Positions 4,897-26,837 of a DNA stretch of 64,000 nucleotides are shown in pieces; position 1 is the stretch's first letter, and each line of letters opens with the position of its first letter. The DNA is taken from IMG/VR virus record IMGVR_UViG_3300022752_000022, positions 85,599 to 149,598 of that record; one strand, written 5' to 3'. The notes beneath the pieces are model-generated. The model did not search any database. It saw only the letters and a program-made list of their open reading frames with translations, and had not been told where the DNA came from. The stretch is from a virus. Position numbers and translations under genes: made by a program.

Positions 4897-5337
4897 ATGG
4901 ACATTTCAAAATGGACGGTACATGAAACGCTGAAACATATCTCAGAGTTGCCAGCAAAAGACCGTGTCGATGCGATTCAGCAAATTTCAAAGTTGAAGCC
5001 TATACTCAGAGAAGTTTTGGGCTACACTTATCACAAAAATTATAACTTTACTCTACCTGAAGGTGATCCTCCATTCAAAACAATGGAAGTGCCACCAAAC
5101 ATGGGATTAAACAGATTACCCCATGAAATTCGAAAGTTTAAATACTTTGTAAACAACACCGAACTTCATGCGATTAAACGTGAGAAGATTTTCATTGAAA
5201 TGTTAGAAGCATTATCGCCAGAAGAAGCAGTCCTGGTACTCATGATAAAAAACAAAAAACTTATCGGTCCTTACAAAAATATCACACGTAAACTTGTAGA
5301 GGAAGCACTGCCCGATCTTTTCAGAGGAGAAAATTGA
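4897..5337 (+). CDS. Conserved T4-like hypothetical protein
   Basis: LPEGDPPF...KREKIFIEMLEAL..EEA pattern, commonly found downstream of rnh. Confidence 0.75.
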   Translation: MDISKWTVHETLKHISELPAKDRVDAIQQISKLKPILREVLGYTYHKNYNFTLPEGDPPFKTMEVPPNMGLNRLPHEIRKFKYFVNNTELHAIKREKIFIEMLEALSPEEAVLVLMIKNKKLIGPYKNITRKLVEEALPDLFRGEN

Positions 5338-5343
5338 TTTCAA

Positions 5344-5529
5344 ATGTCTAAAACCATTCTTAAATCTAACAATAAGTATAAAAAGTTTAAAGACTTTTAT
5401 GAGGAAGATGAGTCTTCAACAAACAAACGTCAAAAACAAAGATTCAATGAATCCAAGAAGCACAAAGACAGGTTGCGGCACGAGTTGCGAAAAGGAAACT
5501 TCCAGATCGCTGAGGAGTACGATTCCTAA
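5344..5529 (+). CDS. Small charged hypothetical protein
   Basis: ORF with AGGAG upstream. Confidence 0.6.
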   Translation: MSKTILKSNNKYKKFKDFYEEDESSTNKRQKQRFNESKKHKDRLRHELRKGNFQIAEEYDS

Positions 5530-5530
5530 C

Positions 5531-5579
5531 TGTTGTTTTTATGCAACACGCTTGACTTTCTCCGTGATCAGAGTACAAT
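5531..5579 (+). promoter_or_regulatory. Early promoter cassette copy 2 (palindrome in inverted orientation)
   Basis: TGTTGTTTTTATGCAACA 5531-5548, TTGACT 5552-5557, TACAAT 5574-5579. Confidence 0.85.
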
Positions 5580-5585
5580 AGAACT

Positions 5586-5927
5586 ATGTTGAAAGAGAAA
5601 GGAAACGAAATGATTGACGTATTAGATACGTACCTGAACTTCATCAAAGAAAACTTTGCAGCACATTATGCAAATCGGACTGACGATGTTGCCAAGAGCA
5701 TGGTTGAAAATTTCAATAATGGCCTTCGGGTTGAAGAGGGTAGCAAGTATCTTAAGATCGTTACCCATGGCGGTTCAGCACACACTTTCATTTGCAAAAA
5801 AGACACTGGCAAATTTAAGAAAGGTGACATTCTAATGGCTGCAAGTTGGAATGCACCCGCTCGAAATTTTGCACGAGGTAATGTGATTGCGAAAGAGTTT
5901 GGTTCAATCAATTGTTATGGAGCTTAG
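5586..5927 (+). CDS. Conserved phage early protein
   Basis: KYLKIV...FKKGDILMAASWNAPARNFARGNV motif; true start may be the ATG at 5610. Confidence 0.75.
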   Translation: MLKEKGNEMIDVLDTYLNFIKENFAAHYANRTDDVAKSMVENFNNGLRVEEGSKYLKIVTHGGSAHTFICKKDTGKFKKGDILMAASWNAPARNFARGNVIAKEFGSINCYGA

Positions 5928-9349: not shown

Positions 9350-9877
9350 ATGCCCAACTGGTGTTATAATAATATTACGATTCATGGAAGCAGTGCGGAG
9401 ATCGCAAAGATTGAAAAGTTTCTTGAAGAACGAAAAGGTGAAAATTGGTTTGATTATTTTCTTCCGATGCCTGAAGAAATTAAGAAAACAGATGGCGCAT
9501 GGTATGAATGGGCAATTAATAATTGGGGCACTAAGTGGAATTGTAATGCAGTTGATTGGACGGCTTTTGAGGGCGAAATCTCATTTACTTTTGATTCAGC
9601 ATGGGGTCCACCGATTACTTTGTACGAGTATATTTCAAATGAATTTGAAGACTTATCAATTCAAGCAGAATACTTAGAAGAAGGTATGGGTTTTGTTGGT
9701 GAATTTATTGATGGTGAAGATAATTGTTACGAATACGAAGACTTAGAAGATTTAGATTACATTCCAGAACATCTAGTGGAGAATTGGAATCTCCGAGAAA
9801 TGTTAGAGGACAGAGAAAGTGAATACGACGAATATCAAGAAGAGGAATCCGATAGCGAAGGATCTCAAAAGTCCTAA
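9350..9877 (+). CDS. DUF1281/YubB ferredoxin-like domain protein
   Basis: MPNWCYN...WYEWAINNWGTKWN...FDSAWGPP...EEGMGFVG. Confidence 0.8.
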   Translation: MPNWCYNNITIHGSSAEIAKIEKFLEERKGENWFDYFLPMPEEIKKTDGAWYEWAINNWGTKWNCNAVDWTAFEGEISFTFDSAWGPPITLYEYISNEFEDLSIQAEYLEEGMGFVGEFIDGEDNCYEYEDLEDLDYIPEHLVENWNLREMLEDRESEYDEYQEEESDSEGSQKS

Positions 9878-9936
9878 GTATCGGATGCGCGTTGTTGAAA
9901 GCAAATTGAGAAAACCACCTAAGCATAAGGAACGGT

Positions 9937-10242
9937 ATGAGTTTGTATCTTGAAAACATGGGTCCTCGACAAAGCATTGCATCGGAAATTCTAGACACCA
10001 TTCGATTCGGAGATTTGGATAGAATCAAAAGCGCAGGCACTTATGTAAAGAAAAAACTAGACGCAACATCGGATGCTTATGTGTTGCATTTCGGCCGATC
10101 TAAAGATTTTTACGGTGCTGTCCTTGTTCACAAGCCAAATAGCATTGAAGTGAAACTTGTAAATGCTGGCCGAAAAAAGTCTATGAAGTTTAAGCGATTG
10201 GCTGAAGTCAAACAATACTTTTGTAAGACTTTAATTCTATAA
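9937..10242 (+). CDS. Hypothetical protein
   Basis: ORF with AAGGA SD. Confidence 0.65.
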   Translation: MSLYLENMGPRQSIASEILDTIRFGDLDRIKSAGTYVKKKLDATSDAYVLHFGRSKDFYGAVLVHKPNSIEVKLVNAGRKKSMKFKRLAEVKQYFCKTLIL

Positions 10243-10577
10243 TGAATAGCACTGAGAATAATTATTTGGACGAAGATGGCTATCCTACTGAAGAGTTTTT
10301 AACAAGTATTGAAATCTGGCGAGATAGACCTTTTACTGAATTGATGGATATGATTAAGCCATACTGGAGGTTTTCGGACTTCGGTTATTGGACTCAGCAG
10401 GCTGTGCTGGTAAAAGAAGATTGGATAATGGAATACAGATTGAGTACAGGTGGTTGGTCCGGCAATGAGAGTATCATTAGAGCACTAAAGGACAATCATA
10501 TTTTTTGGAGTCTCTGCTGGTACAGTAGCCAACGAGGCGGTCATTATGTGTTTGAGGTGAAACATGAAAAAGCGTAA
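10242..10577 (+). CDS. Conserved phage hypothetical protein
   Basis: DGYPT...STGGWSGNESII...RGGHY motif. Confidence 0.75.
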   Translation: MNSTENNYLDEDGYPTEEFLTSIEIWRDRPFTELMDMIKPYWRFSDFGYWTQQAVLVKEDWIMEYRLSTGGWSGNESIIRALKDNHIFWSLCWYSSQRGGHYVFEVKHEKA

Positions 10578-10887
10578 CCAAAAATCATTGTTAACACAAA
10601 TCGGTGAAAAGATTAAACAACGCCGATCACAAATGCTGATTCATTCTTGTCTTTATTATGAAATGAATGAGAGCATTGTTGACGATCATACATGGCAAAA
10701 ATGGGCCAATGAACTCGCAGAATTGCAAAAAAATCATCCTGATGAATGCAATATGGATTTTTATGATGAACACTTTAAAGATTGGGATGGTTCATCGGGT
10801 TATCATTTGCCTTTGAGAGATCCTTGGGTCTACGGCAAAGCAAAGTACATTCTAGAATTGACGAGGAACGGTTATGGGAATGTTTGA
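10564..10887 (+). CDS. Stand-alone protein resembling NAD-dependent DNA ligase domain Ia
   Basis: IHSCLYYEMNESIVDDHTW...ELAELQKNHP resembles the LigA H..YY..D.P.ISD..YD...EL..LE..HP pattern. Confidence 0.6.
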   Translation: MKKRNQKSLLTQIGEKIKQRRSQMLIHSCLYYEMNESIVDDHTWQKWANELAELQKNHPDECNMDFYDEHFKDWDGSSGYHLPLRDPWVYGKAKYILELTRNGYGNV

Positions 10888-11194
10888 TTACATTACTTAT
10901 AATGGTAATAAATATCAGACAAAGAATACTCCATCACAAAGCATAGATAATTATGAAATTCGTAACAATCAATTGTGGTATGAAGATTATGATGCTGAGT
11001 GGATTGATGCAGAAAGAGGCAGTTTTTTGGGGCACATAGAAAAGAAAAATCTTCGTTGGACATTTTGCGAAAAGTTTATCGGTGAGATTCGGTTCTATAG
11101 ATTATTAAACAGGAAAACTAGCACCTTGGAAGAGTATTCTTCTTACTTTTATAAAGGGCAGTTGAAAGAACTTCATCTGTTAGAAAATGAGTGA
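10874..11194 (+). CDS. Conserved phage hypothetical protein
   Basis: MGMFDYI...YQTK...GEIRFY pattern. Confidence 0.7.
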   Translation: MGMFDYITYNGNKYQTKNTPSQSIDNYEIRNNQLWYEDYDAEWIDAERGSFLGHIEKKNLRWTFCEKFIGEIRFYRLLNRKTSTLEEYSSYFYKGQLKELHLLENE

Positions 11195-11396
11195 TATAGC
11201 AAAGCGTCGGGAACAAATGAAAGTATGGATTGATCCGCCGAGTGGATGGAAATATGGTTTCCCTAAAATCTACGATCCTGATTGTGGCTTGAATGTCATG
11301 GAATGGTTAGTGAAAGAAGGATATCCACAAAAAGAGATAGACTACATAGGGAGATTGTTCTACATCAGAAAGTGGAAAGTCAAGAACGATGAATGA
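11187..11396 (+). CDS. Hypothetical protein (IDPPSGWKYGFPK family)
   Basis: Overlapping, coupled ORF. Confidence 0.7.
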   Translation: MSDIAKRREQMKVWIDPPSGWKYGFPKIYDPDCGLNVMEWLVKEGYPQKEIDYIGRLFYIRKWKVKNDE

Positions 11397-11631
11397 TTGG
11401 AAACACACAAATAGCATGGACTACTTTTATAGAAAAGATGACGGTCGTGTTTTAGGTGCTGTATGGCATAAAGCATTAGATTCTTCAGTATGGACCTCAA
11501 AGATATACACAGAGGACTTTCCATTTACAAACGAAAGCGAAAAGTTTTTAGGCCATTTCATTGACGAGTATTCAGCAAAGAAATCAGTTGAACTTTTCTG
11601 GCTTAAAGAGTATAATACACTTTTAACTTAA
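11389..11631 (+). CDS. Hypothetical protein
   Basis: Coupled ORF. Confidence 0.65.
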   Translation: MNDWKHTNSMDYFYRKDDGRVLGAVWHKALDSSVWTSKIYTEDFPFTNESEKFLGHFIDEYSAKKSVELFWLKEYNTLLT

Positions 11632-11648
11632 AATAAAAAAGGAACGCA

Positions 11649-11849
11649 ATGAAGATACTTAAATCTTATTGGTCAACAAATAGCACAGGTACGATTGGAA
11701 TCGTGCAAGTTGAAACATTAACTAATGAAATTAAATATTATATTGGAGTTGGTTCAGGAAAAAGTGAATCTGAAGACCGTGAACGTATCGCTTACTACGG
11801 CAGTAAATTTTTAAATGAAGCAGGTGATATAATTTTTAAGGATATGTAA
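11649..11849 (+). CDS. Hypothetical protein
   Basis: SD present; IGIVQV...YYIG.G.G..E..D...I..YG.KF. Confidence 0.7.
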   Translation: MKILKSYWSTNSTGTIGIVQVETLTNEIKYYIGVGSGKSESEDRERIAYYGSKFLNEAGDIIFKDM

Positions 11850-11999
11850 ATGTTTTGGGCAATTTTTAACTTTATCGGTGCGTGGTACTTATGGAACGTT
11901 TCGCAGAACGCATTTGAAATGAAAATCGATCATATAGGTTGGTTAGCCCTTTTCTTCAGTGCTGTCAATTTTGCAGCAGGTTTGAATGGTATAATATAA
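11850..11999 (+). CDS. Small membrane protein (49 aa), not in ORF track
   Basis: MFWAIFNFIGAWYLW...GWLALFFSAVNFAAGLNGII*. Confidence 0.55.
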   Translation: MFWAIFNFIGAWYLWNVSQNAFEMKIDHIGWLALFFSAVNFAAGLNGII

Positions 12000-12012
12000 A
12001 GGAGTTTATCTA

Positions 12013-12183
12013 ATGAAAGAAGTGAGGGGTTGGCTAGAGAATCGTGTCACAGCATTGCGTGAAGGTAAAGATTCAATTCCTAAAATTGAAATTGATTATT
12101 ATGATACATTTTTTGAAGTTCATTCAGACATTCTAGAAACGATTTGGGTCCAAGTAATGGAGAATGATTTTGTAAAGGAATAA
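12013..12183 (+). CDS. Small hypothetical protein (56 aa), not in ORF track
   Basis: AAGGAG SD; MKEVRGWLENRV... Confidence 0.6.
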   Translation: MKEVRGWLENRVTALREGKDSIPKIEIDYYDTFFEVHSDILETIWVQVMENDFVKE

Positions 12184-12185
12184 AA

Positions 12186-12392
12186 GTGGAATTTGATAAG
12201 GAAACCGATATAGTATATGCTGATACGATTGACTACATCAACCGAGCACTGTATCAGCATAATCCTTTAGCACTTGCTGCAAGTCTTGTAACTTTAGGAC
12301 TAGCAATGTATAGAACATCATTGTCTGACGAAGATTATGATAAGATGTGCACCGCAATTTATGATACAAGATTTAGAATTAAGAAGATTTAA
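12186..12392 (+). CDS. Hypothetical protein
   Basis: GTG start with AAGGA SD. Confidence 0.65.
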   Translation: MEFDKETDIVYADTIDYINRALYQHNPLALAASLVTLGLAMYRTSLSDEDYDKMCTAIYDTRFRIKKI

Positions 12393-12393
12393 A

Positions 12394-12447
12394 CTGTCAT
12401 CAAATCTTCATGAAAATTTAATGCAAATGTAATCAGTTTTATATCAT
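12394..12447 (+). promoter_or_regulatory. Tandem Pho boxes (PhoB-type direct repeats)
   Basis: Heptamers at exact 11-bp phase: CTGTCAT 12394, TCTTCAT 12405, ATTTAAT 12416, ATGTAAT 12427, with A-rich 4-nt spacers; -10-like TATCAT at 12442-12447. Confidence 0.7.
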
Positions 12448-12457
12448 TTTTATGTTA

Positions 12458-12494
12458 AATACATACGAGAGTATAGGGAACTCTCGTATGTATT
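12458..12494. repeat. Perfect 15-bp inverted repeat (hairpin) in operon leader
   Basis: AATACATACGAGAGT-ataggga-ACTCTCGTATGTATT. Confidence 0.9.
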
Positions 12495-12515
12495 AATCTT
12501 TTTAAGGGGAATGGT

Positions 12516-12761
12516 ATGAAACTAGAGATGCGTGTATGGGATATGGATGTTCGTTTAGAGCTAGAAGATGATGACACTGAAGATCAACTTTCAGTTTTGA
12601 CAACAGTTAGAGACCTTTTGGATATGTTGAGTCGGTTTGAAAAAGTAAATGTTAGCATCACACAAATTGAAGATGCTGATGAAGAAGTTGCAGAAGAAGA
12701 CGAAGAAGAAAATCACACTGAAGTTGTACAAGATCATGCAGAGGAAAATCAAGTAATCTGA
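12516..12761 (+). CDS. Small highly acidic protein, first gene of Pho-box operon
   Basis: AAGGGG SD; Asp/Glu-rich. Confidence 0.7.
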   Translation: MKLEMRVWDMDVRLELEDDDTEDQLSVLTTVRDLLDMLSRFEKVNVSITQIEDADEEVAEEDEEENHTEVVQDHAEENQVI

Positions 12762-12768
12762 TGAGAAA

Positions 12769-13542
12769 ATGGATTACCGTACCATCTTTATATCGGATGT
12801 ACATTTAGGTAGTAAGGGTTGTAAAGCAGAAATATTAAGTAATTTTCTTAAAAACAGCAATGCACATAAATTATATCTTATAGGCGATATAGTAGACGGT
12901 TGGAAAATTCAGCAAAATAAGTGGGCTTGGAGACAAGCCCACTCCAACGTAGTGAGAAGAATTCTAGGTTACGCCAAACGTGGCACTGAAGTTGTTTACA
13001 TAGCAGGGAATCATGATGAGTTTTTAAGACCAATGATACCTTACGGTTTAACCTTCGGTCGCATCCAAGTAGCAAATCAATGTACGCATGTAGGACTAGA
13101 TGGCAAAAAATATCTAGTGATACATGGCGATCTTTTTGACGGTATCACTAGATTAGCACCGTGGATTAGTTTTCTCGGTGATAAATCTTATGACATGCTC
13201 ATTTCAATCAATACTAAATTTAACTGGTGGAGGCACAAACTTGGATTCGGGTATTGGAGTTTATCTAAGTATCTTAAACACAGAGTCAAGCGGGCTATTG
13301 ATTTTATGTTTCAGTTTGAGCGTAATCTTGCTGACTATTGTAGTAAGCGTGGTTTTGACGGAGTTATTTGTGGACACATCCACAAAGCAGAAATCAAAAC
13401 AATAAATGGCGTCATCTACATGAACGACGGTGATTGGGTTGAATCGTGTTCAGCATTAGTTGAGCATTTAGATGGCCGTTGGGAAATTGTGTATTGGGAC
13501 AAGAGTGAAGACGATGTGGATTCTGTTTCTGATAGTCGTTAA
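12769..13542 (+). CDS. plcP: PlcP-like phospholipase C (LpxH-family metallophosphoesterase)
   Basis: FISDVHLG, LIGDIVDGW, GNHD (His, not the Arg of LpxH GNRD), HGD, CGHIH, NDGDWVESCSALVE; adjacent to a GT4 gene. Confidence 0.8.
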   Translation: MDYRTIFISDVHLGSKGCKAEILSNFLKNSNAHKLYLIGDIVDGWKIQQNKWAWRQAHSNVVRRILGYAKRGTEVVYIAGNHDEFLRPMIPYGLTFGRIQVANQCTHVGLDGKKYLVIHGDLFDGITRLAPWISFLGDKSYDMLISINTKFNWWRHKLGFGYWSLSKYLKHRVKRAIDFMFQFERNLADYCSKRGFDGVICGHIHKAEIKTINGVIYMNDGDWVESCSALVEHLDGRWEIVYWDKSEDDVDSVSDSR

Positions 13543-13717
13543 CATATACGATCCATCGGATGTGCCGGGCCGTATACAATTACAATTCAAAGATCAAGCT
13601 AGCTGTGAACTAGCGTTACAAAACACAAACTATTGGGTAAAATTCCCGTGGTTCAAAGTGGAGGGGAAGTGTGAAAAAAATACTGATCATAACAGACAAT
13701 TTACCAGACCAAATTAA
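13514..13717 (+). CDS. Small membrane/secreted protein between plcP and agt
   Basis: MWILFLIVVNI...F...SCE.AL...C pattern; overlaps both neighbours. Confidence 0.55.
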   Translation: MWILFLIVVNIYDPSDVPGRIQLQFKDQASCELALQNTNYWVKFPWFKVEGKCEKNTDHNRQFTRPN

Positions 13718-14672
13718 CGGTGTTGTTACCACATACAAAAATATTGAGGCGTGTGCGGTTCGTGATGATTATAACTTTGTTTACATTACTCCCGATGAGT
13801 TCCGCCACTTTGATTGCCCTGTATACAACGAAGTCAAGATTGCCTATCCAAGGAATATGGGCGAGAAGATTGCGGAGATACGTCCGGATCATATCCATAT
13901 CGCCACAGAGGGTCCTGTTGGTTTGTGGGCTAGAGCATATCTTACAAAACATCATTATCGTTACAATACTGCTTATCATACTAAATTTCCTGAAGGGCTC
14001 AAAACTCTGGTTGGACTTCCTGAGTCTATTACCTGGCGTTACATAAAGTGGTTTCATAAACATACAGGCAAAGTGCTGACAACAACGGAATCAATGAAAG
14101 AACAATTGAAAGCTAAAGGTTTAGTTGCTGACATTGTGCCGTGGACTAGAGGAGTTGATCGGACCATTTTTCATCCAGAGCATAGAACAAAAACAAACGG
14201 GCAACCAACTTTGCTTTGTGTGAGCCGAGTCAGTAAAGAAAAGAACCTGGAAGATTTTTGTAGTCTAGACTATTTTGGTGCAAAGAAAATTATGGTCGGT
14301 GATGGTCCATATCGTGAAGAATTGGAAGAAAAGTATCCTGATGTGGAATTTGTCGGCTTCAAAACCGGTGTAGAATTAGCAACATATTTCGCAAATGCAG
14401 ATGTGTTCGTATTTCCTTCAAGATGGGAAACATTCGGCATTGTTATGATTGAAGCAATTGCATGTGGAACTCCTGTTGCAGCATATCCTTGCCAGGGCCC
14501 AGAGGATATCATTGAAAACGGTAAGACTGGCTACCTTAGAGAAAATCTTAAACAAGCAATTACCGAATGCCTGGTCATGGACCGAAACGTAGTCCATCAG
14601 CATAGTCTGAAGTGGTCATGGGAAGAAGCGTGGGAAATCTTCCGGAACAATCTAGTTCCTCTCAAAAACTGA
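13671..14672 (+). CDS. agt: GT4 glycosyltransferase, Agt-like glycolipid synthase
   Basis: ITD..PDQINGVVTT, PDHIHIATEGPVG, YHTKFPE, WTRGVD, RVSKEKNL, FPSRWETFGIVMIEAIACGTPVAAYP. Confidence 0.8.
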   Translation: MKKILIITDNLPDQINGVVTTYKNIEACAVRDDYNFVYITPDEFRHFDCPVYNEVKIAYPRNMGEKIAEIRPDHIHIATEGPVGLWARAYLTKHHYRYNTAYHTKFPEGLKTLVGLPESITWRYIKWFHKHTGKVLTTTESMKEQLKAKGLVADIVPWTRGVDRTIFHPEHRTKTNGQPTLLCVSRVSKEKNLEDFCSLDYFGAKKIMVGDGPYREELEEKYPDVEFVGFKTGVELATYFANADVFVFPSRWETFGIVMIEAIACGTPVAAYPCQGPEDIIENGKTGYLRENLKQAITECLVMDRNVVHQHSLKWSWEEAWEIFRNNLVPLKN

Positions 14673-14674
14673 TT

Positions 14675-14723
14675 TGTTGTTTTCATACAACACAGTTGAC
14701 AATTATCAGGACCAGCGTATAAT
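14675..14723 (+). promoter_or_regulatory. Early promoter cassette copy 4
   Basis: TGTTGTTTTCATACAACA 14675-14692, TTGACA 14696-14701, TATAAT 14718-14723. Confidence 0.85.
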
Positions 14724-23145: not shown

Positions 23146-23495
23146 GTCAACAAATGGTTCACGATGTAGTAAGGTTTATTCAAGCGTGTGAGCAACTTCG
23201 CACACCTAAAAATATAGAATTGTATGATAAACTAATTCATGAGGAATTTGAAGAATACATAGATGCAAAGAATGACGCAGAGAAATTGGATGCATGTATG
23301 GACATGATTTGGGTGATTATTGGTTATTGTCATATGAAAGGTTGGAATGTAGAACGTGCATGGGAAGAAGTTGCAAGAAGTAATTTAGATAAGATTGATC
23401 CTGATACAGGATATGTTCTAAAAAATTCTGATGGTAAAGTGATGAAACCTAAGCATTGGAAAGCACCTGCACTTGAACAATTTGTTGAAGCATGA
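23142..23495 (+). CDS. MazG-like/PRA-PH nucleotide pyrophosphohydrolase
   Basis: LIHEEFEE...LDACMD...EVARSN..K...DGKVMKP..W. Confidence 0.85.
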   Translation: MSQQMVHDVVRFIQACEQLRTPKNIELYDKLIHEEFEEYIDAKNDAEKLDACMDMIWVIIGYCHMKGWNVERAWEEVARSNLDKIDPDTGYVLKNSDGKVMKPKHWKAPALEQFVEA

Positions 23496-23514
23496 TATAA
23501 TCACTAAATAAAAT

Positions 23515-23864
23515 ATTGTTGTATGAAGTTGAAGGAAACATGTTGCGGACGGCGGTTCAAATCCGCCCAGGTCCACCAAAAGCATGGCAGCGAAAGACGC
23601 CTAACCAGCGACCCTACCTACAAGGGAGAATACGGTGAATGATCAATTGTTGTGGTGACGATTGTATGTGTTCACGCCGCAGTAGGATGCTTTTGATGGG
23701 CCTGTACTGGTTTCGACGGAGCAAAGAGTACGGAAATGGACAACACGACAGGCGAAGGACGTAATCCTAGCAAAACGTTAAACGCAAACGACGAAAGATT
23801 TGCATTAGCCGCCTAAACACGGCTTAGGGTTTCGGTGAGTTTCCTCGTAACAGAATAACTCACC
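23515..23864 (+). ncRNA. ssrA: Circularly permuted (two-piece) tmRNA, tag (A)ANDERFALAA
   Basis: Acceptor piece first: T arm GGCGG-TTCAAAT-CCGCC, then CAGGTCC-ACCA ending 23578. Coding piece starts GGGCCTG..TTTCGAC at 23698 (G3-U pair). Tag ORF 23784-23816. Late-type ACTAAATA at 23503-23510. Confidence 0.92.
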
Positions 23865-23895
23865 ACACACTCACACACATTTAAAGGAGACTATT

Positions 23896-24132
23896 ATGAG
23901 TGATACGGCGTTTGGTATACGATTAGAAATTCTCAAAATGGCAAAAGATATAGTTGATCATGACTATTTTACAATGAGAGATTTTGAACAACAAATTTGG
24001 AATACTAAAGCAGATGATGCTAGAGCAAAAGGCAAAGAAATACCACCATTTACTTTTACACCATATCCATCTGTTGATACTATCATAGCAAAAGCAAAAG
24101 AACTTAATCGTTTTATTAGTGAAAGACAGTGA
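23896..24132 (+). CDS. Conserved T4-like small protein
   Basis: [11 protein letters not shown]...YPS...II.KA..L..F; AAGGAG SD. Confidence 0.8.
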
Positions 24133-25136
24133 ATTTGATGAAAGCATTTATTACTGGTATCACGGGGCAAGATGGCTCTTACTTAGCGGAACTTCTTTTG
24201 TCTAAAGGTTACGATGTGCATGGGCTTGTTAGACGCACTAGTACATATAATCTTCAAAACATTGAACATATTAAATCACAATTAAATCTTCATTACGGAG
24301 ATTTATCAGACGCATCAAATGTACACAATATCATTATGGACATTAAACCAAATGAAGTGTATAATCTCGGTGCACAATCACATGTTTCGGTTAGTTTTAA
24401 ATCACCTGCATATACTGCTGACGCAAATGGTGTTGGTGTTCTTCATATGCTTGAAGCTGTTAGAAAACTATCTGAACATCAAATCTGCAAATTCTATCAA
24501 GCATCAACAAGTGAACTCTTTGGCAAAGTTCAACAAGTTCCACAAACAGAAAGCACACCGTTTTATCCACGAAGCCCTTATGCTGTAGCGAAACTATACG
24601 GCTACTGGATCACAGTCAACTATCGTGAAAGTTATAATTTATTTGCTTGTAACGGTATTCTATTCAATCACGAAAGTCCACGAAGAGGTGTAGATTTTGT
24701 TACGAGAAAAATCACACATGGTTTAGTGAGAGCAATTCGTGGTGAAGGCCCAGTTCAATTAGGCAATCTAGATGCGAGACGAGATTGGGGCCATGCAAAA
24801 GATTTTGTAAAAGCAATGTGGCTTATGCTTCAACAAACAAGAGCGGATGATTATGTGATTGCAACCGGTGTTCAACAAAGTGTCCGTGATTTCTGTGAAG
24901 TTGCCGCTAAGATTTTAGGAAAAGAAATTATTTGGACTGGCGTTGGATCATCCGAAAAAGGCATAGATAGATTAACTGGCAATGTTCTTATTGAAGTATC
25001 AGAAAAATTCTATAGACCAGCTGAAGTGAATACTTTATTAGGCAATTCAATGAAAGCAAGATCAGTTTTACAATGGAAACCTGAATATACATTTTATGAT
25101 TTAGTGAAAGAAATGGTCATGGAGGACATGAAATGA
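24129..25136 (+). CDS. gmd: GDP-mannose 4,6-dehydratase
   Basis: [52 protein letters not shown]. Confidence 0.96.
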
Positions 25137-25612
25137 ATTATGTATATGAAAGTCCGGATAAAGGCAAAACAATTTATCAAAGAGAATTTGGTTCAAATGA
25201 AAAAATTTTAATATCAAAGGAAAAATCTTCAATGATTTATGTGCCGATTAGCTTAGGGGAATTGATTGACAAACTCACCATTCTTCAGATAAAATTACAG
25301 CAGATTGATGATTCTGAAAAATTGAAGAATGTAAAGAATGAATGGGATCTTTTATCTAAACTTCCTGAGTACAGAGATGTTGCATATGAAATTGCACCAT
25401 ATTTTACTGAGCTTTATAACATTAATATGGAACTTTGGGAGATTGAAGATGAAATTCGTGAGCATGAACTAAATCATGTTTTTGATTTCAAATTTATTCG
25501 TTTGGCTAGAAAAGTATATACGACAAATGATAAACGTGCAGCAATTAAAAAAGAAATCAATCTAAAATATGGATCAAAAATTATAGAAGAAAAATCTTAT
25601 AAGGAATATTGA
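25133..25612 (+). CDS. DUF6165-like protein
   Basis: [16 protein letters not shown]...LWEIEDEIR...AR.VY..ND.RA.IK..IN...S.I.EEKSY. Confidence 0.75.
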
Positions 25613-25613
25613 T

Positions 25614-26837
25614 ATGGCAAAATTAGTAAGTATGGGCGAACACTACGTAAGTGATTTCGTAAAGAGCGAAGAAGATACAAAAAATCGTTCCAGATACAGT
25701 TTAGATTTATGGTTAGATGGTACGCTAGGCGCCGTACGACTGCATGATTTAGCGCCGCACGATTCTATGTGGGGTCAGTATTGGTATAGAAGTGGTATCA
25801 ATTCTAGTATGAAAGCTGAACTGAATAGAATCGTCGGTGAAATTCTTCAGCGAATGAATCTTGAAAAAGATGATATTTGGTTAGATATTGCATGTAATGA
25901 CGGCACACTTTTGAGTTATGTGCCACCTTATGTGAAACGAGTCGGCATTGATCCTTGCAATGATGAATATCTAAAAGAATCGAAACTACATGGTGAAATT
26001 GTTCAAGATTACTTTTCAAAAAATGCGTGGAATAAAACGACTGTCGCACATAAGAAAGCAAAAGTCATTACGTGTATTGCAATGTTTTATGATTTAGATG
26101 ATCCGAAACCATTCGTACAAGATATGTACGATATTTTGGATGATGATGGTGTTATCGTTCTTCAGATGAGTTACACACCATTGATGCTCAAACAAATGGC
26201 TTTTGATAATATTTGCCACGAGCATGTATATTATTATGATCTTACATCATTGCTTGGTTTGTTTGGCAGAGTTGGATTTAGATGTGTTGATTGTTCTTTG
26301 AACGACACTAACGGCGGTAGTTTTAGAATTTATTTCAGAAAAGAGAAAGCAAATCCAGCGAAGTTTGGTTCAGCACCTTTGCGTGACGTATGTGAAACAC
26401 GAGTCGCAAGTATTTTAGCATATGAGGGTAACGTTCTGAATATTCGCAAAGCAAGTGTATGGGATAACTTTGAAAAGCGCCTTAAGATTATGAAGCGTGA
26501 TTTAACTAAACTCATTAAAGACATCAAAGCAGAAGGCAAAACAATCTACGGCTACGGCGCAAGTACAAAGGGTAATACATTACTTCAATACTTTGGATTG
26601 ACTGCAAACGAAATTACGGCCATTGCTGAACGAAGCCCATATAAGTTTGGATTGAAAACGATTGGCACACATATTCCTATTGTGAGTGAAGAAGAAATGC
26701 GGGCAGCAAAGCCTGATTATCTTTTGGTGCTACCCTGGCATTTCATTGACGAATTTTTAAATCGTGAACAAGAATATCTCAATGCTGGAGGAAAAATGAT
26801 TGTTCCGTGTCCGGAAGTTAAAATATATGGAAATTAA
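25614..26837 (+). CDS. NDP-sugar C-methyltransferase
   Basis: YWYRSG, DIACNDGTLL, FDNICHEH, YGASTKGNTLL, PDYLLVLPWHF. Confidence 0.88.
   Translation: MAKLVSMGEHYVSDFVKSEEDTKNRSRYSLDLWLDGTLGAVRLHDLAPHDSMWGQYWYRSGINSSMKAELNRIVGEILQRMNLEKDDIWLDIACNDGTLLSYVPPYVKRVGIDPCNDEYLKESKLHGEIVQDYFSKNAWNKTTVAHKKAKVITCIAMFYDLDDPKPFVQDMYDILDDDGVIVLQMSYTPLMLKQMAFDNICHEHVYYYDLTSLLGLFGRVGFRCVDCSLNDTNGGSFRIYFRKEKANPAKFGSAPLRDVCETRVASILAYEGNVLNIRKASVWDNFEKRLKIMKRDLTKLIKDIKAEGKTIYGYGASTKGNTLLQYFGLTANEITAIAERSPYKFGLKTIGTHIPIVSEEEMRAAKPDYLLVLPWHFIDEFLNREQEYLNAGGKMIVPCPEVKIYGN

Follow-up and report, generated by a model that had tools for sequence, protein, structure and literature searches.

We describe a candidate lipid-remodelling cassette in a 64,000-nt stretch of viral DNA (hereafter the window), which corresponds to positions 85599-149598 of the 149,598-bp IMG/VR virus record IMGVR_UViG_3300022752_000022. 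The cassette most likely comprises four genes on the plus strand, encoding an acidic protein, a PlcP-type phosphoesterase, a tiny protein and an Agt-type glycosyltransferase of family GT4, and it probably serves a phage-driven replacement of phospholipids by glycolipids that is tied to phosphorus stress. The window belongs to a complete 149.6-kb T4-like phage genome, and the cassette is phage-encoded, because the record has direct terminal repeats at its ends and the genome carries gp6-, gp5- and gp48-like T4-type baseplate genes together with gp32 and gp59. An initial annotation had described the region as a Pho-box-controlled operon of the two enzyme genes. The sequence features it listed (a GNHD esterase, GT4 motifs and four heptamers in 11-bp phase) are all present, its gene identities hold and its biology is probably right, whereas its operator was asserted too confidently and its anatomy was incomplete, missing the acidic gene, the tiny gene, a TAAATA-hairpin leader and a Trp-Glu pair in the transferase.

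In bacteria, plcP-agt operons with Pho boxes are established (PMC4796936, PMC8528852, PMC9239053), with characterised examples in Pelagibacter HTCC7211 (PB7211_983/PB7211_960, GTcp), Phaeobacter MED193, P. aeruginosa (PA3219-PA3218), S. meliloti (SMc00171), A. tumefaciens (Atu2297) and M. trichosporium OB3b. The phage cassette shares with them the order plcP then agt, an LpxH-like GNHD esterase and, as a candidate, an upstream direct repeat of the Pho-box type. It differs in residing in a lytic T4-like phage, within a large viral clade of its own, and in features that the bacterial operon lacks: two virus-specific small genes, one of which overlaps both enzyme genes, and a leader with TAAATA and a hairpin. 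We propose that a bacterial phosphate-starvation lipid-remodelling pathway has been transplanted into the infected cell. The PlcP-type, Mn-dependent phosphoesterase would cleave host glycerophospholipids to diacylglycerol and a phosphorylated head group, and the Agt-type GT4 would add sugar from a UDP (uridine diphosphate)-sugar to the diacylglycerol, giving a phosphorus-free glycolipid; the membrane would stay intact while its lipid phosphorus is freed for phage nucleotide synthesis. With no -35 element, the promoter would be activator-dependent, host PhoB reading the phased heptamers, and would fire mainly in phosphate-starved hosts. Our comparisons establish what the genes are, their orthology, how widely they are spread among viruses and that a strong Pho-box-like repeat accompanies plcP, pstS and phoX in sibling phages; we infer what the enzymes do, that PhoB binds a site as degenerate as this one, where the freed phosphorus goes and what the small proteins contribute.

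The esterase gene (12769-13542, plus strand) encodes a 257-residue protein that matches the Pfam family Metallophos (E 2.9e-14). The protein carries SDVHLG (residue 9), GDIVD (39), GNHDEF (80), HGDLFD (119) and GHIHKA (202), and an alignment of 23 sequences shows no variation at D10, H12, D40, N81, H82, H119, H203 and H205. A calcineurin-like fold, a helical lipid-binding insertion and the metal motifs DxH, GD, GN.D, H and GHxH are shared with LpxH; the phage esterase differs in its GNHD, in its profile scores, in having agt as its genomic partner and in the association with Pho-type operators. The LpxH equivalog models NF003743 and TIGR01854 score it at 47.2 and 40.2 bits, below their respective cut-offs of 134 and 190 bits, and it reads GNHD in place of the GNRD of LpxH. 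Its sole sequence match in the PDB is LpxH (E 7e-4), in an alignment that places 'iagnhd' opposite 'ihgnrd'. GNHD occurs in 112 of 115 compared sequences, the exceptions being two LpxH outgroups and a protein of phage S-SRM01, and the two genomic LpxH proteins compared both have GNRD. The GNHD/GNRD distinction on which the initial annotation relied is thus borne out by both comparisons.

Genome context and phylogeny agree. A Photobacterium genome encodes a true LpxH (344 bits) plus a separate PlcP-like paralogue (37 bits), and a search of one alphaproteobacterial genome returned the PlcP family only, with no LpxH above cut-off. In a quick maximum-likelihood tree of 84 sequences, whose cellular members were defined by synteny and which does not include experimentally characterised PlcP, LpxH sits on a long branch split off at 100% support (Shimodaira-Hasegawa-like approximate likelihood-ratio test, SH-aLRT), and the window esterase falls among the family whose cellular members precede agt/GT4. 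The placement with plcP-agt genes rather than LpxH is what the initial annotation had anticipated of such a tree. The AlphaFold model of the esterase has a pLDDT (predicted local distance difference test) of 76, low in the helical insertion; the top matches in a fold search with it were 23 LpxH structures (E 2e-10 to 2e-8), helical insertion included, which clearly outranked other metallophosphoesterases. Such an LpxH-like predicted fold fits a lipid-acting enzyme of LpxH architecture. Because the equivalog scores are low, the motif is GNHD, the tree separates the two families and a PlcP-like paralogue stands beside true LpxH, the esterase by its sequence belongs to the PlcP family, not to LpxH, and is a predicted phospholipase C that would release diacylglycerol.

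The esterase is 50-59% identical to cellular plcP-agt loci, which is the range reported between characterised members, and for the transferase the corresponding figure is 36-44%; the OB3b and HTCC7211 pairs are 51% and 43% identical. A published screen for PlcP used BLASTP at E < 1e-40 against MED193_17359 (PMC4796936). Some PlcP homologues of 276-297 residues have long C-terminal tails, which we considered as an extra domain and rejected, as they represent out-of-frame read-through over the tiny gene.

The GT4 gene (13671-14672, plus strand) begins 128 nt past the end of plcP with a GTG start behind GGAGGGG and encodes a 333-residue predicted diacylglycerol glycosyltransferase with the Pfam domains Glycos_transf_1 and Glyco_transf_4. 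The motifs quoted for it in the initial annotation are all found in this gene: HIATEGP at residue 76, YHTKF(PE) at 102 and WTRGVD at 158. Of the 80 viral loci, 40 have a GT4 immediately 3' of plcP, as do most of the cellular loci retrieved. When the window GT4 was compared with five cellular genomes, the gene beside plcP scored highest in all five (202-264 bits), and the next GT4 paralogue reached at most 93 bits. Because the plcP-adjacent gene is the best match in all five genomes, far above the paralogues, the GT4 is by sequence orthologous to the Agt-type transferase encoded after plcP in bacteria; synteny and these matches support the earlier naming of the gene as Agt.

Comparison with GTcp, whose key residues have been mapped by mutation, places the phage enzyme in a distinct subtype. 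GTcp has the UDP-sugar motifs GRVAXEKN and FPSXTDTFG, a Gly-rich motif and His104, contacts diacylglycerol through Thr162, Arg163 and Trp320, and uses a catalytic Asp256 in place of the usual GT4 Glu (PMC8231724). Like bacterial Agt, the phage protein is a GT4 of about 333 residues with HIATEGP, YHT.FP, WTRGVD and [GS]RV..EKN, and it keeps nearly all residues essential in GTcp, namely the equivalents of Gly16, Gly82, Gly85, His104, Thr162, Arg163, Arg190, Lys195, Thr257, Phe258, Gly259, Glu264 and the C-terminal Trp. In the window GT4 these regions read SRVSKEKN at 185, G17, G81, G84, H103, T159-R160, T254-F255-G256 and E261, with C-terminal Trp residues at 315, 317 and 321. The catalytic Asp256 is not kept: where bacterial Agt has FPSxTDTFG, the viral consensus is FPSxWETFG (FPSRWETFG in the window, with Glu253 after Trp), so that a virus-specific Trp-Glu replaces Thr-Asp at the catalytic site. 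WETFG was found in most viral loci. Among the 120 closest metagenome homologues listed, 114 carry it, and in the remaining six the motif went undetected. TDT[FY]G occurs in 23 of 24 plcP-adjacent GT4s from genome-collection loci with a readable motif, and the exception, contig L084, groups with the viral clade. On these sequences, WETFG is a clade marker of viral Agt, and the window GT4 is an orthologue in a distinct viral subtype rather than a typical GTcp.

The two enzyme genes are accompanied by two small ones. The first gene of the unit (12516-12761, plus strand), preceded by a ribosome-binding site, encodes an acidic protein of 81 residues with a conserved N-terminus, MKLEMR.WD.DV, and an Asp/Glu-rich tail. 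In 10 of the 80 viral loci a homologue is the gene immediately before plcP; another occurs in L086, a contig from a metagenome-assembled genome (MAG), where it (1113-1379) sits between pstS and plcP. The acidic protein has no significant Pfam or PHROG match, and an atlas search gave viral hypothetical proteins only. The tiny gene (13514-13717, plus strand) is read in another frame and shares 29 nt with the end of plcP and 47 nt with the start of the GT4 gene; it bridges the 128-nt plcP-agt 'spacer', which is therefore coding. Its 67-residue product has a conserved core of about 53 residues and contains two invariant Cys; the protein conserved across loci is roughly 55 residues long and begins MW.L.LI.V. 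The codons for its conserved VEG double as the agt Shine-Dalgarno sequence.

Of the 80 viral loci, 42 have the tiny gene after plcP, whereas no clearly cellular locus does, and in its non-overlapping part the variable columns at codon positions 1, 2 and 3 number 22, 16 and 41; by these patterns it is under clear purifying selection and specific to the viral clade. AlphaFold predicts a strand-strand-helix-strand fold with a pLDDT of 92. A fold search gave no significant match, no Pfam family was found and the atlas returned viral hypothetical proteins only; the predicted fold is new. The hydrophobic start was considered as a signal peptide or membrane anchor, an idea that we dropped as the confident model makes this segment a β-strand.

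Upstream of the cassette, a 68-residue open reading frame stops at 12392, and the first of four heptamers begins 2 nt past its stop codon. These heptamers, which form a candidate tandem Pho box (12394-12433, plus strand), are CTGTCAT (12394-12400), TCTTCAT (12405-12411), ATTTAAT (12416-12422) and ATGTAAT (12427-12433), in exact 11-bp phase. They match CTGTCAT at 7, 4, 4 and 5 of 7 positions, the first and fourth being good and the second and third degenerate. The sum of 20/28 ties for the highest in the genome when both strands, about 299,000 positions, are scored (two sites at 20, one at 19 and five at 18). It is the extreme of a smooth genomic tail, and it falls in the one 123-bp gap where a cassette promoter would be expected, for which a post hoc estimate puts the positional chance at about 1e-3. 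A promoter scan found no sigma-70 promoter with a -35 element upstream of the cassette, and a perfect one at the next unit.

Between the heptamers and the genes lies a conserved leader. The hexamer TAAATA (12457-12462, plus strand), which may be a -10 element or the first transcribed bases, is invariant in all six columns across nine sibling loci and stands directly 5' of a hairpin. The hairpin, a 15-bp stem-loop (12458-12494, plus strand), has a folding energy of -21.2 kcal/mol (z = -4.8) in the window, and 11 of 12 consensus pairs are kept through changes on both sides in the nine-locus alignment, in which the sequence itself varies. Candidate roles are a 5'-untranslated-region structure or stabiliser, or an insulating terminator against upstream early transcription. 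We also considered a plain terminator: a simple scan flags the window hairpin as terminator-like, with a T-run that most siblings lack. A T4-type late promoter was also considered: TATAAATA occurs 21 times in the genome, and the sequence at TAAATA matches it at 6 of 8 positions.

The link to the Pho regulon is clearest in sibling phages. We scanned 1.98 Mb from 102 non-redundant loci (cited below by L number) for the strict repeat [CT]TGT[AC]A[TC]-N4-[CT]TGT[AC]A[TC] and found 29 occurrences, 13 of them within 450 nt upstream of plcP and all of these on the coding strand. The remaining 16 comprise eight before phoX, five before pstS, two before one 215-residue protein and one that is unexplained; 28 of 29 thus precede plcP, phoX, pstS or one unknown gene, in the siblings and not in this genome. 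Repeat density is 0.28 per kb upstream of plcP vs 0.008 per kb elsewhere, a 34-fold enrichment. A strong direct repeat, TTGTAAT-N4-CTGTAAT, precedes plcP, pstS and phoX in siblings (strong sibling box, TTGTAATAATTCTGTAAT), and in their pstS promoters TAAATA follows the box by 11 nt, the classical PhoB geometry. Because the repeat is enriched before plcP, pstS and phoX and shows this geometry, it is very probably a Pho operator. The window heptamers occupy the same slot as the sibling boxes, past the upstream stop codon and before TAAATA, the hairpin and the ribosome-binding site. Weak-plus-strong dimers of the form ATTTAAT-N4-[AC]TGTAAT also stand before plcP in L027, L011 and L014, and CTGTCAT-type dimers are found in cellular plcP loci too, in line with earlier publications (PMC4796936, PMC8528852).

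The gene order phoX-pstS-acidic-plcP-tiny-agt is present in the closest siblings (L006, L009, L011, L013, L014, L016, L019 and L024). In sibling loci a Tat (twin-arginine translocation)-signal PhoX-like phosphatase of about 735 residues and PstS, each behind TTGTAAT-N4-CTGTAAT, form a 'Pho island' with the plcP cassette (L006 2177-4384, L009, L011, L013, L014, L016, L019 and L024; L036 2507-3514, L040, L074 and L076). In seven viral loci (L045, at 5189-5836, and L005, L007, L018, L047, L058 and L074) an Ala/Val/Glu-rich 215-residue protein is encoded behind a three-heptamer Pho-type box beside plcP, which makes it a candidate addition to the Pho genes of phages. From these comparisons we rate a link between the cassette family and the Pho regulon as having much higher odds than PhoB control of the window copy.

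Relatives of the esterase are widespread among viruses. At least 600 IMG/VR contigs encode one, the best 80 being 69-80% identical, and there are thousands of similar metagenome proteins. The initial annotation knew of no characterised phage version of the module; we likewise found no paper on viral plcP, whereas the cassette, given these contigs, is not singular. Full-text literature searches, which mostly do not cover subscription journals, returned no description of viral plcP or agt. Compared at the DNA level with isolated phages, the region gave no match. The checked records carry gp23, among them L035 (356 kb) and L074 (335 kb), two jumbo T4-like phages (about 95% complete by CheckV) in which the plcP-tiny-agt cassette is also seen.

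Within the viral clade, sequences share 70-95% identity, whereas identity to the sampled cellular genomes does not exceed 59%. A homologue occurs in 112 of 401 sampled Gammaproteobacteria, the best being 55% identical; the 401 include four unpublished genomes (G301, G044, G313 and G146), without which the count is 108 of 397 and the conclusion the same, and which contributed none of the loci analysed here. The Gammaproteobacteria of GTDB take in the former Betaproteobacteria. Because cellular identity tops out at 59%, and at 55% in the sampled Gammaproteobacteria, the viral genes make up an old virus-borne clade and are not a recent capture. Three short MAG contigs at 71-74% identity exceed this cellular ceiling and are probably phage DNA, because the two amenable to tree placement or to a search either fall within the viral clade or have the tiny gene. 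MAG-binned contigs L084, L085 and L116 and proteins P0003, P0007, P0034 and P0193 carry viral-clade plcP or agt; their bins are assigned to Haliscomenobacter, Alpha-, Beta- and Gammaproteobacteria and Caulobacteraceae, and the sequences are probably mis-binned phage DNA.

Two isolated T4-like phages have more distant homologues. Mosig_00120 of Pelagibacter phage Mosig EXVC030M is 50% identical to the esterase and lies divergently next to pstS, and QPX48289 of Synechococcus phage S-SRM01 is 36% identical. Both are annotated as LpxH (in Mosig as 'putative UDP-2,3-diacylglucosamine hydrolase'), and we found no paper that treats either as PlcP. Unlike the window esterase, neither adjoins an Agt, acidic or tiny gene, and both proteins branch outside the large viral clade. 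The intergenic region between pstS and the plcP-like gene of Mosig (L001, 4897-4977) holds five TTAAC cores, two of them 11 bp apart (TTTAACA-N4-CTTAACA), reminiscent of the cyanobacterial PyTTAAPyPy Pho box, with TATAAT downstream.

Cyanophages offer the closest precedent for host-controlled Pho genes: in P-SSM2, pstS and phoA are under host PhoBR control, and S-PM2d has PhoB-bound promoters (PMC10976474). The siblings of the window phage resemble them as T4-like phages that place host phosphate-starvation genes (pstS and phoX) behind a host-type PhoB operator. The cargo differs, being phosphate uptake and ester hydrolysis in cyanophages and lipid remodelling here, and so does the operator, which is of the proteobacterial CTGTCAT/TTGTAAT type here and of the cyanobacterial PyTTAAPyPy type there.

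Several points weigh against an active, PhoB-controlled PlcP-Agt cassette in this particular phage. Membership in PlcP and Agt rests on cellular orthologues defined by synteny, not on characterised sequences. Since glutamate is the normal GT4 nucleophile, the viral Agt, which has Glu at the catalytic position, probably works as an enzyme, perhaps with a different donor or product, even though the D256E change cost GTcp more than 90% of its activity (PMC8231724). Given that loss and the Glu-for-Asp change, the product or sugar donor of the viral enzyme may therefore differ from those of GTcp. At the operator, a position weight matrix built from the pstS and phoX sites of sibling phages (training sites 20-26 bits) scores the two window dimers at 7.9 and -0.05 bits, ranking them 29th and 805th of 299,162. 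The best site anywhere in the phage genome reaches 13 bits, so that no strong Pho box was found with this matrix; the summed tandem score is nonetheless the highest in the genome, at low absolute values. The matrix scan proposed earlier therefore gives a divided answer, the tandem topping the genome and its single dimers falling far below the sibling boxes. Heptamer 4 lies 23 nt from the conserved TAAATA, vs a canonical 10-11 nt, and other candidate -10 hexamers (TATATC/TATCAT) occur 6-8 nt past heptamer 4, so that no single -10 is assignable. The hairpin between the heptamers and the genes could terminate transcripts started at the box. Genes for pstS, phoH and phoX were not found in this phage, and predicted phage Pho boxes often fail PhoB binding assays (cyanophage work, PMC10976474). 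The label 'Pho-box-controlled' draws support from the position of the heptamers in the siblings' box slot and from the occurrence of such boxes before pstS and phoX, neither of which the initial annotation could draw on, and is undercut by two poor heptamers of four and the low matrix score. We regard PhoB control of this copy, through a degenerate site, as plausible, with about one chance in two of being correct.

The most serious alternative keeps the enzymes and dispenses with PhoB: the cassette would be driven by a constitutive, early-programme or weak phage promoter, by read-through from an upstream early promoter or from a start at TAAATA, and the heptamers would be what is left, after decay, of the strong Pho box that siblings retain. 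The low dimer scores beside the functional-looking sibling boxes, the loss here of the pstS and phoX that siblings keep and the record of failed binding assays favour it, as do the genes from about 9350 to 14672, which run on one strand with short gaps, and TGTAAATA-like hexamers, which resemble T4-type late promoters. Yet the tandem is still the best such site genome-wide, exactly at the siblings' box position, the same weak-plus-strong dimers precede plcP in other phages, between upstream transcription and the cassette stands a strong hairpin followed by a T-run, and there is no promoter with a -35 element; we consider this alternative possible but the less likely course. We think it unlikely that the membrane is remodelled for other ends, such as superinfection exclusion, receptor or envelope change, grazer susceptibility or lysis preparation, which the small proteins could tune. 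Lipid remodelling in bacteria does alter membrane proteomes, phage receptors and grazing susceptibility (PMC9804370, PMC9457565), the two added small genes and the Trp-Glu Agt suggest a function diverged from the cellular pathway, and the cassette is kept here although pstS and phoX are absent. We tie the cassette to phosphorus stress all the same, because siblings join it physically to phoX and pstS under a common operator motif, and because its linked genes include none known for exclusion or lysis.

Finally, the database label could be right, and the pair an LpxH plus a lipopolysaccharide or cell-wall glycosyltransferase, forming an auxiliary module of lipopolysaccharide biosynthesis. The source annotations read LpxH and 'glycosyltransferase involved in cell wall biosynthesis', two virome papers file viral 'lpxH' under lipopolysaccharide biosynthesis, the closest solved fold is LpxH, and the phage also encodes a GDP (guanosine diphosphate)-mannose 4,6-dehydratase and a sugar C-methyltransferase. 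Against this stand scores far under both equivalog cut-offs, GNHD rather than GNRD, the fully supported long branch that parts LpxH from the esterase family, the occurrence of the PlcP family as a separate paralogue beside true LpxH or, in the alphaproteobacterial genome, as the only family found, and a GT4 whose reciprocal best hit is the Agt encoded beside plcP and not a lipopolysaccharide transferase. Together these make the LpxH interpretation very improbable, and we retain phospholipid-to-glycolipid replacement under phosphorus stress as the probable function.

The cassette is surrounded by small genes on the same strand. Its 3' boundary is marked by a perfect sigma-70 promoter, TTGACA-16-TATAAT (14696-14723, plus strand; 12/12 match), which opens the next transcription unit. 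The phage has seven tRNA/tmRNA (transfer-messenger RNA) genes. The tmRNA gene (window 23471-23873, plus strand) matches the Rfam beta_tmRNA model at 132 bits and also the permuted-tmRNA model, and its tag ends ANDERFALAA; because the gene is of the beta type, the host is probably betaproteobacterial. At 24129-26837 (plus strand) the dehydratase (463 bits) lies beside the methyltransferase, and the two look like a deoxysugar or surface-glycan auxiliary pair, apart from the lipid cassette.

For the wider family, we see an evenly balanced case that T4-like phages of 146-356 kb, probably with freshwater or marine proteobacterial hosts, have domesticated plcP-agt as a virus-specific four-gene cassette, often wired to PhoB together with pstS and phoX. 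The virus-specific small proteins, the Trp-Glu Agt and the leader hairpin offer concrete experimental handles on it. If this interpretation is correct, virome genes labelled 'lpxH' and now counted as lipopolysaccharide genes would really be plcP. Phosphorus is the element that phages need most relative to their hosts, and phages are known to meet this need by taking up phosphate (pstS) or hydrolysing esters (phoA, phoX). PlcP-Agt would then be a third route, one that mines the host membrane for phosphorus while keeping it intact. A viral swap of phospholipid for glycolipid would be a widespread, unrecognised phosphorus route that alters the lipid chemistry of infected plankton, and it would link infection to the phospholipid-to-glycolipid shifts that serve as markers of phosphorus stress in natural waters.

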